Positions 12,739 through 17,654 of a DNA stretch of 63,321 bases are shown one piece after another. Below the pieces are notes generated by a model. The model saw nothing but the letters and a program-made list of their open reading frames with translations. It did not search any database and was not told where the DNA came from. How positions within the stretch are numbered: position 1 is the first letter of the stretch; each line of letters begins with the position of its first letter. Position numbers and translations under genes: made by a program. Source of the DNA: an uncultured Clostridia bacterium (GTDB lineage: Bacteria > Bacillota > Clostridia > Christensenellales > UBA1242). The stretch is from assembly GCA_944383295.1 (NCBI GenBank), contig CALWOW010000035.1, positions 1 through 63,321 of the forward strand, in the 5' to 3' direction.

Positions 12739-12766
12739 AAAAACAAGGGTCTTTGCCCTTGTTTTT
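12739..12766. terminator. Bidirectional intrinsic terminator
   Basis: AAAAACAAGGG / CCCTTGTTTTT between convergent genes. Confidence 0.8.
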
Positions 12767-13154
12767 AATATTGCATTTCTCCGTATTGAACGTTTCTTGA
12801 TTTTCTGTCTTCTTCAATAAGTTGATTAATCAAATTACGTACTTTAGAAGGATTTTTTATTCGTATCAAATCTACATGGTCGTCGGAAGCATCTTTGCAG
12901 AATACTTTTAAAGTTCCTGTACCCCAAAATTTGTTTGTAAATGATTCAAAAATTGATGTATCATCTATACGAAAAACATTTACTTCGTTTATGTGACTTG
13001 TAAGTAAACCTATATCAACGATGAGTTTTACCCATTTGCCAGGTTTCTTTACAATGCTATAACGTGTAAACGAAAGGGGAAGACCACACCAGCGTTTGCG
13101 GTCGTGCCATAATTCAACACAATCATCGCCATATTTTTTTGCTGCTACTGACAT
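12765..13154 (-). CDS. Bacterial PH-domain protein (bPH_2-like)
   Basis: WHDRKRWCGLPLSFTRY...EVNVFRIDD...WGTGTLKVFCKDAS pattern, typical of small firmicute PH proteins. Confidence 0.7.
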   Translation of the reverse strand: MSVAAKKYGDDCVELWHDRKRWCGLPLSFTRYSIVKKPGKWVKLIVDIGLLTSHINEVNVFRIDDTSIFESFTNKFWGTGTLKVFCKDASDDHVDLIRIKNPSKVRNLINQLIEEDRKSRNVQYGEMQY

Positions 13155-13297: not shown

Positions 13298-13744
13298 TTA
13301 ATCTTCTATTATTACTGTTCCGTCTTCTTTGATTTCTATTGTGTCGCCACTTTTTACTGTTTGCAAAAATTCTTCGCCTAGTTTATCAATAGCAATCATA
13401 GGACTTTTTTCCCAAATCTTTGCTAAGATTACTCCGCTTGCTGCAAGTGAATCTATTTCATTAGAAAACAACATTGCGCTAGGATTTATCCCCATAGAGC
13501 ATACTGTTTGAAGTACCATACCGCCCGTTGTAGAACCTATTGTAGTTGGCAAGCACAAAATCTTACCCGTTATTACTTTACCATAAATATCTGGATTGTT
13601 TTGGTCACTTCCTATTATCTCTTTGGCATTTTTAAGAGCGCTTTTTTGGAATGTAGCAAGCGTATTTAAACCTGCGTGCGAAACCAAAGCTTCACCTTTT
13701 AGATTTCCAGCGTTCAATACTCTACCTTTAAATTCTTTACTCAT
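13298..13744 (-). CDS. Aconitase X small (swivel) subunit, DUF126 family
   Basis: GRVLNAGNLKGEALVS...GKILCLPTTIGSTTG...IKSGDTIEI; 1-bp gap after the large subunit. Confidence 0.85.
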   Translation of the reverse strand: MSKEFKGRVLNAGNLKGEALVSHAGLNTLATFQKSALKNAKEIIGSDQNNPDIYGKVITGKILCLPTTIGSTTGGMVLQTVCSMGINPSAMLFSNEIDSLAASGVILAKIWEKSPMIAIDKLGEEFLQTVKSGDTIEIKEDGTVIIED

Positions 13745-13745
13745 T

Positions 13746-15020
13746 TTAATTCTCCTTACCTGTAATAATATCTAAAATTTCTTGTTCTCTATAGAATCTT
13801 GCAGCCGTGTAGGTGCGTAATTTATTTGAGCAAGTTATAATAGGTCTTGAATGAGTGAGAGGATTGTTAAGATACATCAGTGGGCAAATGCTAGTCAATT
13901 TTGCACCTGTTGCTTGTAATTTTAAATATTGTGCGCTTTTTTCAAATTCTTTTGCAATAGCAGGTGAAGTGCATAGTATTGTACGGCATGTAACTTTACT
14001 TCTTCCGTTTTTAATCAAGCTGTTGAAAATATTATCAGTCCAAGCATTAAGTTGCTCCATAGATAGGTGTGGACAACCTATAAAACAAAGTTTTGGCTTT
14101 GCTTCTTTATTTTTCCAAAGGATAGGGTAGTTGTCATAAGTTTTTTGCAAGTATTCATCATCAATAACTAATTTTTTAGCATCTTTGCGAATTAATTTTT
14201 CACCGCTTTCTTTTGCTTCTGGGGTAAGATTTTCGACATGGAAAAGACCTACTGCACCGTTACTTGCACTTGCTGCTCCCATATCTTTAAGATAAGCGCA
14301 AACATGGTCATCAAGTTTTGTGCCAATAAATTTATCCAAGCCTTTTATATAAGGAACACCATCTCCAACAGCAATACCAATAGCACTACCTAAAATTTGC
14401 GCTTCAGGAATTTTTGTTGTTTTTATTTCGACAATCCAATTTGCTTTACGATTTTCATCTAATAAAAGTCCAAATTCTGGCACTTTGCCCAAAATGCACC
14501 CAAACAAGTCTATCATTCCACTATTACGATTACATCTAGCACCTAAAACAGAGTTTGCATAAACTACTGCACTACTTTCCGCCCAAGAAAGAATATCGCC
14601 TTTTTGCGGAATGTTTCCCATTTCTTTATGGTAACAAGCGCAACTAAATGCATCTTTGTCTTTTAAACCAACTTGATTGAGTTGTACTTCATAATCTTGT
14701 TGTTTGCCATACATAATTTTGCTAAAAATGAGTTTGTCAAGCAAATTACATTTTACATTTTTGTAGTCAATAGGGCGTGGGTCTGCTGTAAATTTCCATT
14801 TTGCAGTAATTCCTGCATCGATTATTTCCTGCATAGTGCGATATAATGGTTTTAGTAGGGGAATACCCATTGAAGTTACAATATGACCGTCATGAGTGAT
14901 ATCAACAAATCGCTCTGCGCCAAAAATATCGCCTAATTCCACCATAGTACGCATAATTTTAGACATAACTTCACCCTTTGAGCCATCTAAAATTTCTTGT
15001 TCTTCCTTTGTCAGTTTCAT
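13746..15020 (-). CDS. Aconitase X large (catalytic) subunit, DUF521 family
   Basis: MKLTKEEQEILDG, SCACY, WAESSAVVYANSVLGARCNR, GLFHVENLTPEA, FIGCPHLS and ICPLM, giving three candidate Fe-S cysteines. Confidence 0.9.
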   Translation of the reverse strand: MKLTKEEQEILDGSKGEVMSKIMRTMVELGDIFGAERFVDITHDGHIVTSMGIPLLKPLYRTMQEIIDAGITAKWKFTADPRPIDYKNVKCNLLDKLIFSKIMYGKQQDYEVQLNQVGLKDKDAFSCACYHKEMGNIPQKGDILSWAESSAVVYANSVLGARCNRNSGMIDLFGCILGKVPEFGLLLDENRKANWIVEIKTTKIPEAQILGSAIGIAVGDGVPYIKGLDKFIGTKLDDHVCAYLKDMGAASASNGAVGLFHVENLTPEAKESGEKLIRKDAKKLVIDDEYLQKTYDNYPILWKNKEAKPKLCFIGCPHLSMEQLNAWTDNIFNSLIKNGRSKVTCRTILCTSPAIAKEFEKSAQYLKLQATGAKLTSICPLMYLNNPLTHSRPIITCSNKLRTYTAARFYREQEILDIITGKEN

Positions 15021-15058
15021 AGAAAATCTCCTTTTTTATTTTTAATAATTGTATAAAA

Positions 15059-17326
15059 TTATATATCACGACAAGTGCGATAAGCACTTTTTGTTGCTGC
15101 AAACACTTTTCCAGGTTTTATTGCATCACCAATTTGATAAATATTTGGTGCAGCGTTTTCTTTTACTAATTCAAAGTATAATTCATTTTGTGGGCGAGTA
15201 CCAATAGCCAAAATAACCAAGTCGGCAGGGAGTAATTTGTTTTCCAATTTTGTAGAAATCTTTGGCGCAAGTGGGTTTTCGACATTTTCAGGTAGTATAG
15301 GTTGCCAAGTGTTGTAAGGGTTAGGTACTGATTTATGAACATTTTTAGATATAATAACCGCATCTTTAGTTATTTTGTAAACTGTACTTAAATTATGTGT
15401 TATTACACCCGATTTGTCTAAATAGTGAAGTATGTGACCTCTATTTGCGGTGCAAGTGTCAGCCATAAGATTTTCTGTCATTTCAACTATCTGTACATTC
15501 TTGTTAAGTTCGAGTTTAGCCCAATATGCCGTTTCACAACCAGAATCACCACCGCCAATAATTACAATATCCTTTGCATTTTTTACTCTATCTACATTTA
15601 ACAAAGCTTCTGTAACTGTAACTACATTTTTGTTTTCTACACCGTCTATTTTAGGAGTGACAATGTGACTTCCTGTCGCAACAACTATAACATCAAATTT
15701 TCCTTTCAAGTTTTCAACGGTTGCTGTTGTATTTAATTTTAATTTGAAGTTAGGATTTGATTTCAAATCTTCAATTTCGTTTTGAAGATGCTTTACATAG
15801 TTGTTAATTTCAAATTTTATCTTCGGTACTCCTGCGGCAATTAAAGTACCGCCAATTTCACTATTTTTTTCGAAAAGTGTAACATTGTGACCACGACCTA
15901 ACAAAGTTTTTACTGCAACAACTCCAGCAGGACCGCCACCGATAACGGCGACTTTTTGTGGGTTGCTTGCAAGTGGTATTTCACGAGAAAAAACATCTTC
16001 GAATGCAGTGCGAGGATTTACCGCACATTGTGGGTGTCCACCTTCAACAAATTCACGAATACAAGCTTCGTGACAACCAATGCAAGGATTAATCTTTTCG
16101 CAATTACCGCTGTATGCTTTGTTTGGCCAGTCAGGGTCGGCAAGCAAAGGTCTAGCAAGCATTATCATATCACATTTATTATCACGCAATGCTTTTTCTG
16201 CTAAATCTGGGTAACCTAATTTACCTACAGCTACAACAGGGACTTCTTTACCTGCATTTGAAAGTATTTTGTTTGCTTTAAAATAATCTTTCACAATTTG
16301 TGCTACATCTAAATAGCAACCGCTAGGCATACTTGCAGGTGGGTGAGGCAACCACCAGTTGTCATAGCAACCTAAATCGACATCAAACATATCAACGCCC
16401 GCTTTAACAAGGTTTGCCATATAGTCTAAGGTTTGTTGAACAGTTCTTTCGTTTTTAAACTTCTTTAGACTTTTTATTTGTTCAATTTTTTCTTGATAAG
16501 TTGCGTTAAGAGCAAGTGATAAGTCTATTCTATACATGATAGGGTAGCGGTCACCTGTGCGTTTACGTATCTCTTTTACTACATCAATACCAAATCGTTG
16601 CCAGTCGGAATATTTACCCATAGAGCGCCTATTAAATGCAGGGTTTGTTAATTGTTCGAGCAAATATCCTTCGTGTCCGTGCAGATATACACCATCTATA
16701 TTAAGCGCTTTTGCATCTGCTGCTGATTGCCCAAAGCGTTTTACGAGTTTATCTAACTTATGACCACTTATTCGTTGACAAGGAATTTGTGGCATATAAA
16801 AATTAGGGTTCCACGAAGCACTAACAGGTAGTTTAAATTGCGTGAGCAAACACTGAGGATTTCCTACACGTCCAAGACCTGCTGTAAGTTGAATAAATAT
16901 GTGTGAGCCGTGAGAATGCACACCAGCGGCGACTTCACGCCAACCAGAAAACACTGTACGAGTGCGGTCAATCCTAGGGAAGTAACTTAAATCTCCAAGT
17001 TCCTTTACGGTTGGGTCTATACCGTAACTAACAGGGATTAAGCCTGTTGTTATTAAACCAACGCCACCTTTTGCACGTTCTGCAAAATAACTAATCATTT
17101 TTTGACTTGGACGACCAGTTTCTTCTGCCATATTTATATTACCCATAGGTCCCATTACAAGACGGTTCTTAAGTGTCAAATGGTTTACAGTAATAGGGCT
17201 AAACATAGCAGTATATGGATATAACTTGTTCGACAAGGTAGGGGCTTCGAAATTGTGGTTCCACCAATCGCCAAAATTATCTTCTAAATCGTAAAGTATT
17301 TTATCATTTACCATAATTTTCTCCAT
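15059..17326 (-). CDS. NADH:flavin oxidoreductase (old yellow enzyme / 2-enoate reductase type) with Fe-S and FAD/NAD domains
   Basis: LKNRLVMGPM, active-site HGHEGYLLEQ, cluster motif CIGCHEAC...CAVNP, and Rossmann motifs VIGGGPAG and IIGGGDSG. The start may be ATG 17314, which has GGAG upstream. Confidence 0.92.
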   Translation of the reverse strand: MEKIMVNDKILYDLEDNFGDWWNHNFEAPTLSNKLYPYTAMFSPITVNHLTLKNRLVMGPMGNINMAEETGRPSQKMISYFAERAKGGVGLITTGLIPVSYGIDPTVKELGDLSYFPRIDRTRTVFSGWREVAAGVHSHGSHIFIQLTAGLGRVGNPQCLLTQFKLPVSASWNPNFYMPQIPCQRISGHKLDKLVKRFGQSAADAKALNIDGVYLHGHEGYLLEQLTNPAFNRRSMGKYSDWQRFGIDVVKEIRKRTGDRYPIMYRIDLSLALNATYQEKIEQIKSLKKFKNERTVQQTLDYMANLVKAGVDMFDVDLGCYDNWWLPHPPASMPSGCYLDVAQIVKDYFKANKILSNAGKEVPVVAVGKLGYPDLAEKALRDNKCDMIMLARPLLADPDWPNKAYSGNCEKINPCIGCHEACIREFVEGGHPQCAVNPRTAFEDVFSREIPLASNPQKVAVIGGGPAGVVAVKTLLGRGHNVTLFEKNSEIGGTLIAAGVPKIKFEINNYVKHLQNEIEDLKSNPNFKLKLNTTATVENLKGKFDVIVVATGSHIVTPKIDGVENKNVVTVTEALLNVDRVKNAKDIVIIGGGDSGCETAYWAKLELNKNVQIVEMTENLMADTCTANRGHILHYLDKSGVITHNLSTVYKITKDAVIISKNVHKSVPNPYNTWQPILPENVENPLAPKISTKLENKLLPADLVILAIGTRPQNELYFELVKENAAPNIYQIGDAIKPGKVFAATKSAYRTCRDI

Positions 17327-17654
17327 TTTTTATAATATAAAATTATATCTTTAATTTTAATTTTAAGCAACTAAATGAGACAAATTACGCAACTTTTTGC
17401 AAAAATAATACAGTTAAATATTAATTTAATGCTTTTTTGCAAAGAATTAATGAAAAATAAGTTATATTAATACTAATTTAATTTTTGTTTTATAAAAAAC
17501 AATAAATGCTGTTACTTATTTTTTTGTAACAAATACCCCTTAATTCATTTGACTTTTTACCCTAAAATTTAATAAAATAAAAAATGTAGAATTTTTTAAA
17601 ATTTTGTAAATAAATGCTAGCGAAATCGACAAAATAAAAATAGGGAAAAAGATT

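Follow-up and report, generated by a model that had tools for sequence, protein, structure and literature searches.

Two reactions have been characterised for enzymes of the aconitase X (AcnX) family, and both are dehydrations of beta-hydroxy acids that make use of the same residues (PMC8184944). The archaeal Type-IIb enzymes, represented by the mevalonate 5-phosphate (MVA5P) dehydratases of T. kodakarensis (Tk; TK1249/TK1248, PDB 7cnr/7cns) and A. pernix, are built from two subunits. Key residues of the Tk enzyme are the cluster ligands C110, C283 and C342, the stretch Glu129-Ser130-Ser131, Lys361 and Tyr365 of the large subunit, and Ser62-Thr63 of the small one (PMC8184944). In the hydroxyproline route AcnX is followed by a pyrroline-2-carboxylate (Pyr2C) reductase, a known succession of dehydration and reduction (PMC8184944), while no function is assigned to the Types IIc to IIf, in which the landmark residues are missing (Watanabe et al. 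2021, PMC8184944). Here we describe a two-subunit AcnX that is encoded together with a reductase from the family of Old Yellow Enzymes (OYEs) in a putative three-gene operon of an uncultured Clostridia bacterium. The operon is located on contig CALWOW010000035.1, the 63,321 nucleotides of which are referred to as the window in the following.

The closest described relatives of the reductase are the clostridial 2-enoate reductases (2-ERs) such as C. sporogenes FldZ (EC 1.3.1.31), and FadH from E. coli. The C=C bonds reduced by this class are in conjugation with a carboxylate or a thioester, and the catalytic tyrosine (DCR Tyr166, OYE1 Tyr196) is the mark of the alkene-reducing members, while amine dehydrogenases have a histidine (PMC11759058). 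The window OYE has the same FMN barrel, the four-cysteine 4Fe-4S site, the FAD/NAD(P)H domain and the catalytic tyrosine, and its likeness to FldZ is one of architecture and of this tyrosine. A comparable task is carried out by the Fld, Had and Lcd systems of the reductive Stickland type, where a 2-hydroxyacyl-CoA dehydratase is combined with an enoate or acyl-CoA reductase, and a hydroxyl group is removed by dehydration and C=C reduction as an electron sink. These systems, however, act on 2-hydroxy acids by ketyl-radical chemistry and depend on CoA activation and on an ATP-driven activator, whereas the AcnX module would use Lewis-acid/base chemistry on a free 3-hydroxy acid.

The AcnX-OYE module is real, conserved and uncharacterised. 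Open reading frames (ORFs) and Pfam matches confirmed the gene order OYE, AcnX large subunit, AcnX small subunit, with spacers of exactly 38 nt and 1 nt, as given in a preliminary description of this DNA, and, in keeping with the intact motifs noted there, the cofactor and catalytic residues are present in the OYE and in both AcnX subunits. We consider it moderately probable, judging from the sequences, that the three proteins form a two-step module that would first dehydrate and then reduce, converting a free beta-hydroxy acid via a 2-enoate to the saturated acid at the expense of NAD(P)H. In the proposed mechanism, the heterodimeric AcnX would bind a free carboxylate bearing a beta-hydroxyl group, the Lewis acid being the Cys3-ligated Fe-S cluster and the base a serine alkoxide of the small subunit, and loss of water would yield the alpha,beta-unsaturated acid. 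Electrons would then pass in the OYE from NAD(P)H via FAD and the 4Fe-4S cluster to FMN, and transfer of a hydride to the beta-carbon and of a proton from the conserved tyrosine to the alpha-carbon would give the saturated acid. The net reaction would be a reductive beta-dehydroxylation that uses one NAD(P)H. This mechanism is the best-supported one and agrees with the reactions of the two characterised AcnX enzymes and of the tyrosine-bearing 2-ERs. The functional link between AcnX and OYE, taken from the genomic association, is very likely; beyond it, we infer the reactions and the direction in which they run, a substrate that is a free acid and no CoA derivative, and the physiological role of the module. 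The preliminary description had further proposed a new dehydration-reduction pathway. The AcnX subclass, its predicted substrate and the type of reductase are new, but the logic of dehydrating and then reducing already exists in the hydroxyproline route of AcnX (PMC8184944). In line with its statement that the pairing is not known to have been characterised, we found no publication describing it in the searched literature, which had most subscription journals outside its reach.

Conservation of the pairing had been set beforehand as a refutation test, and the pairing is conserved: it is found in a monophyletic AcnX clade, with at least two OYE lineages, and in an archaeon. A search with two clade-specific peptide motifs and one genome per species retrieved confirmed relatives of the AcnX clade in at least 596 species genomes, mainly of uncultured gut Clostridia and Bacilli from humans, poultry and ruminants. 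Loci were counted in the best 80 of these at least 596 relatives. The small-subunit gene lies directly downstream of the large-subunit gene in 79 of the 80 loci, and the last one (L038) ends before that position. Of the 77 scorable loci, 44 have an OYE-type gene inside the fetched flank, and in 34 it is directly upstream on the same strand. When the neighbours of 81 loci were clustered, no conserved transporter, regulator or other partner emerged besides OYE, nor was a CoA transferase or CoA ligase found as a conserved neighbour. A MarR regulator (3 loci) and, between OYE and AcnX, a PF01663 phosphodiesterase (3 loci) were found sporadically. As a side observation, the latter genes, of the type-I phosphodiesterase/alkaline-phosphatase superfamily, inserted upstream of the large-subunit gene in L030, L033 and L060, represent two unrelated sequences, one cytoplasmic-looking and one a lipoprotein, and a PhoA-like gene is located two genes downstream in L065 and L075.

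The AcnX-adjacent reductases can be divided into two lineages, only about 28% identical to each other, and a third type occurs in 2 loci. The OYE-L lineage (approximately 755 aa) comprises 11 loci and includes the window, the OYE-S lineage (approximately 685 aa) comprises 32. A FadH-type OYE exists somewhere in 49 of 50 carrier genomes, mostly as exactly one copy. The window's own genome holds both lineages, with OYE-S on another contig (683 aa, C25:28931-30982, minus strand). This second FadH-type flavoenzyme is the orthologue (59-76% identity) of the AcnX-adjacent reductase in 32 other genomes, and its own neighbours, DnaN and a lipoprotein, are unrelated. Co-occurrence was analysed in 301 evenly drawn genomes of the order, 35 with and 266 without the AcnX clade. 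All 35 carriers possess a partner OYE, an OYE-S orthologue in 27 cases and an OYE-L-type protein in 8 (7 of these adjacent), compared with approximately 24 of the 266 non-carriers having either one (Fisher p ~3e-30). AcnX never occurs without the reductase in this sample, while the reductase can occur alone. Within the same sample the clade is patchy even inside a single genus, which marks it as an accessory trait rather than a housekeeping function.

The preliminary description had proposed to check the phylogeny and the neighbourhood of AcnX. When 96 AcnX large subunits were placed in a tree, obtained with a quick search only and with SH-aLRT support values, the OYE-linked AcnX proteins formed a single clade (SH-aLRT 100) that is separated by a long branch from other Firmicutes AcnX, with OYE as the only conserved neighbour. 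OYE-L and OYE-S partners are interspersed within this clade, and at least four partner switches are needed, so that the two look interchangeable. The pairing also extends to deeper branches. L086 has an AcnX of 54% identity in the order OYE, large subunit, small subunit, and the AcnX proteins of L085 and L107 (~40% identity) are arranged as large subunit, small subunit, OYE. In a Thermofilum archaeon (L108, GCA_038727395.1; AcnX 45% identical) the order is OYE, an SCP2-like gene, large subunit, small subunit. Note that SCP2-like proteins have a lipid-carrier fold, and that the archaeal genes adjoin a divergent CUT1-type ABC transporter. The OYEs of L086, of L085/L107 and of Thermofilum share 44-46% identity with one another and 32-40% with OYE-S and OYE-L, and their mutual identity suggests a single AcnX-associated OYE lineage. 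In larger genomes the gene for a sigma-54 enhancer-binding protein is situated directly upstream, with a PAS sensor domain in L085 and L086. In the L085/L107 type a class I/II aminotransferase gene precedes this regulator, in addition to a Glu/Leu/Phe/Val dehydrogenase (L085) or M20 peptidases (L107). This context points to an inducible catabolic operon, perhaps an amino-acid-linked one. The L085/L107 branch has Asn instead of Asp at position 80, and its substrate may thus differ. Metagenome-assembled genomes of Deltaproteobacteria type (L105/L106) contain a related AcnX pair that shares 49% identity with the L085 type and has no OYE, and this pair follows the genes for a sigma-54 enhancer-binding protein, a 456-aa protein unmatched in Pfam and an 85-aa ORF; a nitroreductase-ferredoxin gene is located nearby on the opposite strand.

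The window reductase itself matches Oxidored_FMN (1.8e-37) and Pyr_redox_2 (9.5e-30) in Pfam, and its closest structures in the PDB are the 2,4-dienoyl-CoA reductase of E. coli (1ps9, 2.3e-56) and then 2-naphthoyl-CoA reductase (NCR, 6qkg). It contains the Fe-S motif C415-x2-C418-x3-C422-x11-C434, two GxGxxG dinucleotide motifs and the catalytic tyrosine within HEGYL, aligned with SEGYL of FadH. Among the AcnX-linked OYEs, CxxCxxxC is found in 44 of 49 and HEGY[LF] in 46 of 49. Identity to FadH is low, OYE-L is extended by about 37 aa at its N-terminus and has internal insertions, and the genomic partner is AcnX. OYE-L remains below every NCBIfam equivalog cut-off, with scores of 301 for BaiCD (cut-off 825) and 286 for BilR (cut-off 750); the corresponding scores of OYE-S, 338 and 348, are below both as well. 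A reversed flow, in which the OYE would desaturate a saturated acid and AcnX hydrate the enoate in a CoA-free step resembling beta-oxidation, has to be considered, as aconitase-family reactions are reversible and members of the OYE subfamily such as TMADH, histamine dehydrogenase and BaiCD act oxidatively. We regard this direction as improbable. The catalytic tyrosine is typical of alkene reducers (PMC11759058). For the carriers, all strictly fermentative and with tiny genomes, an electron acceptor would be of greater use than a desaturation, which in turn depends on an acceptor of high potential.

Several observations weigh against the module as proposed. In about half of the AcnX loci the OYE is encoded elsewhere in the genome, and OYE-S is present in 21 of the 266 AcnX-less genomes, from which we conclude that the reductase also functions on its own. 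CoA thioesters are the substrates of FadH and NCR, the OYE relatives of known structure that are closest, and of BaiCD, the best NCBIfam match. No transporter for the module could be assigned among the neighbours of the 81 loci or in the host inventory, where DUF1538, one MFS, Na/Pi, Na/Ca and AI-2E-type proteins are the only secondary carriers and none is recognisable as a carboxylate carrier. The quick search behind the tree is to be counted here, too. In 20 AcnX-less genomes no common partner of OYE-S was found, the sole lead being two genomes in which it closes an operon encoding two subunits of the HGD-D family and a BcrAD/BadFG ATPase (L120:2512-9058, L121:3180-9055). By analogy this HgdAB/HgdC-type system might possibly be another dehydratase feeding the same reductase, and would then speak for the module. 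The HGD-D and BcrAD genes could instead belong to a system resembling benzoyl-CoA reductase, again at the expense of the proposed role. No CoA transferase was seen near either operon; L120 additionally contains a CooC/ParA-like ATPase, a weak CdhC-like gene and a divergent TetR regulator.

Taken further, the stand-alone occurrence of OYE-S, the loci with no adjacent OYE and the CoA esters used by the closest solved relatives would fit a loose association, in which the OYE is a general reductase of 2-enoates or enoyl-CoAs (e.g. plant phenylpropenoates or amino-acid-derived enoyl-CoAs), AcnX has an unrelated substrate, and the two are adjacent through co-regulation or by chance, their genomes being compact. 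We hold this to be unlikely in view of the partner OYE in 35 of 35 carriers, of an adjacency that was re-formed with different OYE lineages and in an archaeon, and of the lack of any other conserved neighbour. The functional pairing of AcnX and OYE remains our preferred reading.

Both AcnX subunits are clearly assigned to their families, with 310 bits for the large subunit in Pfam AcnX (PF04412, cut-off 31.5) and 50.3 bits for the small subunit in the swivel domain family PF01989 (cut-off 27, E 2.1e-13). The large subunit matches Tk MVA5P dehydratase (PDB 7cnr_A) with an E-value of 1.2e-39, and a Foldseek search with its AF2 model (pLDDT 81, pTM 0.81) returned the same structure on top (E 1.9e-26, TM 0.77/0.84), followed by At AcnX. 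As in the Type-IIb enzymes, the three cysteine ligands (C127, C316, C379), the Glu-Ser-Ser stretch (E148-S149-S150), the lysine (K400) and the tyrosine (Y404) are retained, and in the small subunit, which aligns with Tk TK1248 and At AcnX, Ser71-Thr72 corresponds to Tk Ser62-Thr63. With the exception of S150, which is invariant only in close relatives (alignment A1), each of these residues is shared by 97% or more of 78 clade members and by 80% or more of 18 outgroup sequences. The predicted chemistry is accordingly that of Type-IIb, from a beta-hydroxy acid to a 2-enoate, and in both it would end at the dehydration product. In spite of this common core, identity to Type-IIb is only about 26-35%, and the window AcnX has approximately 40 extra residues in several clade-specific insertions. 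The discrepancies extend to the residues that would face the substrate. The N-binding aspartate, Asp203 in At AcnX, is replaced by Val48 in 78 of 78 clade members, and the phosphate-contacting Asn79 of Tk is Asp80, an exchange specific for the core clade, as all other AcnX compared have an asparagine here. Asn399, Arg402 and Thr403 around the carboxylate-binding lysine are also clade-specific, such that Lys-x-Ala-Tyr of Type-IIb becomes Lys-Leu-Arg-Thr-Tyr. Because of Val48, of Asp80 and of the lack of an HMG-CoA reductase or proline-racemase homologue in the genome, the clade appears to be neither a hydroxyproline nor a phosphomevalonate dehydratase, and the predicted substrate is neither cis-3-hydroxy-L-proline nor MVA5P. 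The clade is devoid of the substrate landmarks of both characterised activities and would be one of the orphan Type-II subclasses.

The case against hydroxyproline deserves some detail, as a salvage route in which AcnX makes Pyr2C from a 3-hydroxyproline isomer and the OYE replaces Pyr2C reductase to yield proline would draw on known Type-I/IIa chemistry, with the same order of dehydration and NAD(P)H-dependent reduction and the same core catalytic residues. Moreover, Thr73 of the small subunit matches At Thr72, and a proline-racemase-family gene adjoins the pair in L086. We still judge this route quite improbable. Besides the uniform exchange of the N-binding aspartate for valine, the large subunit scores 151 bits with the NCBIfam model for the dehydratase of cis-3-hydroxy-L-proline (C3LHyp, NF051439; equivalog cut-off 700), neither a Pro_racemase homologue nor a hydroxyproline gene context with a Pyr2C reductase was found in the window, the host genome or the 80 close loci, and neither an epimerase nor an amino-acid transporter belongs to the window context. 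The reductase is an Fe-S/FMN/FAD OYE and not an imine reductase of the OCD or DpkA type. Firmicutes that do have hydroxyproline-type clusters use a separate AcnX clade for them. This outgroup subclass of Bacillota (L094/L098/L091, L089) is about 30% identical and keeps the Asp203 equivalent, which is present in 4 of 4 AcnX from Pro_racemase clusters. In the L094/L098/L091 type the cluster consists of a Liv-type ABC transporter, Pro_racemase, an OCD/mu-crystallin reductase and MauE/thioredoxin genes, and in L089 Pro_racemase, a radical-SAM activase and a HypD-like glycyl-radical enzyme are encoded directly upstream of AcnX, a combination that may allow the use of both 4- and 3-hydroxyproline. 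The contrast with these AcnX proteins is the strongest argument for a different predicted function of the OYE-linked clade.

A role in isoprenoid precursor synthesis, as in the archaeal modified mevalonate pathway, could be advocated on the grounds that the closest solved relative is the Tk MVA5P dehydratase and that IspH was not found in the host by a single-marker search, which implies that the host has no complete MEP pathway. We have rejected it as highly improbable. HMG-CoA reductase (PF00368) was not found in the 97%-complete host genome, in which UbiD/UbiX were not searched genome-wide, and Asp80 takes the place of the phosphate-contacting Asn79. Tk Asn53 aligns with Glu65, in a region where the alignment is less certain. 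Patchiness within one genus is unlike an essential pathway, and the partner is an ene-reductase, which has no place in this route, instead of a UbiD decarboxylase.

As to what the AcnX-OYE module may act upon, Asp80 together with Asn399, Arg402 and Thr403 suggests a substrate whose distal group is polar, possibly cationic or hydroxylated. Two candidates were considered. Carnitine, prompted by Asp80, was weakened by the lack of a BCCT transporter in the host and in 41 of 41 family genomes, and by the origin of many carriers from herbivores. The conversion of malate to succinate with AcnX as a fumarase analogue was dismissed, since class-I fumarase, although missing in the host, is distributed over 17 of 35 carriers and 173 of 266 non-carriers and is thus not complementary. 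The host genome has a size of 1.05 Mb, and no ketoacyl synthase was detected in it or in 14 of 14 family genomes. From the absent markers, the host is probably auxotrophic for fatty acids and isoprenoid precursors; these absences are based on single marker families, and the full absence of either pathway is not proven by them. The retention of the module in so small a genome is notable. That it is kept in genomes of about 1 Mb with no fatty-acid or isoprenoid markers could point to NAD+ regeneration or the salvage of a hydroxy acid, and the module may serve as a fermentative electron sink or for metabolite salvage in a host- or partner-dependent organism. The lipid-dependent Thermofilum, with the SCP2-like gene inside its operon, may be likened in this respect to the gut carriers that have no markers of lipid synthesis.

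The arrangement of the genes is summarised in Table 1. From the gene spacing only, we infer that the three genes are co-transcribed as one operon. An AGGAG Shine-Dalgarno sequence precedes the gene for the AcnX large subunit, and an AAGGAG ahead of the small-subunit ATG is located within the 3' end of the large-subunit gene, so that, with the 1-nt gap, the small-subunit gene appears to be translationally coupled to it. The true start of the OYE is probably not the annotated first ATG at 17326 but the second one at 17314 (Met5), as this has a GGAG 7 nt upstream and the alignment of relatives begins at residue 5. Upstream of the operon, promoter-like hexamers on the minus strand are found at 17383-17354 and 17360-17332, at a frequency not above that in shuffled sequence, and a search for a riboswitch or leader gave no Rfam match at E <= 5 except noise.

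Table 1. Positions of the operon genes and adjoining features in the window.
Feature	Position	Strand	Remarks
FadH/2-enoate-reductase-type OYE gene (OYE-L)	15059-17326	minus	755 aa ORF
AcnX large subunit gene	13746-15020	minus	424 aa ORF; uncharacterised Type-II subclass
AcnX small (swivel) subunit gene	13298-13744	minus	148 aa ORF
Intergenic region, AT-rich, divergent	17327-17654		presumed operon promoter region
bPH_2-like gene	12765-13154	minus	129 aa

Within approximately 8 kb the operon is surrounded by genes for a 4855-aa lipoprotein, a bPH_2-like protein, a SpoVT-like regulator, a DUF6320 protein and proteins unmatched in Pfam, with FtsA/FtsZ beyond. No racemase, UbiD/UbiX, mevalonate-pathway or transporter genes are among these neighbours, as had been stated before. 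The bPH_2-like gene, 143 nt downstream of the small-subunit gene, is syntenic in the closest relatives L001-L003 only and hence probably lies outside the module.

For the biology of the carriers, we tentatively entertain a wider view, as a possibility rather than a probability: the AcnX-OYE pair may be an old, horizontally mobile bacterial and archaeal pathway for the reductive removal of a beta-hydroxyl group from a free acid, independent of CoA, ATP and radical chemistry and an alternative to the 2-hydroxyacyl-CoA dehydratase route, which would regenerate NAD+ from an abundant gut hydroxy acid or salvage a partner-derived one, possibly a 3-hydroxy lipid acid. For the AcnX family, the orphan subclass comes with a clue, in that its product must suit a 2-enoate reductase. 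Given its occurrence in 596 or more species and its survival of extreme genome reduction, the module probably handles a common gut metabolite, and it may be the source of an 'M minus O' conversion that is unassigned in the metabolomes of the gut. If the proposed function is true, dehydration by a Lewis-acid Fe-S cluster and ene-reduction by a flavin can replace CoA-dependent radical dehydratases, and a pair of enzymes that is oxygen-sensitive yet simple in its cofactors would be added to the biocatalysis toolbox.

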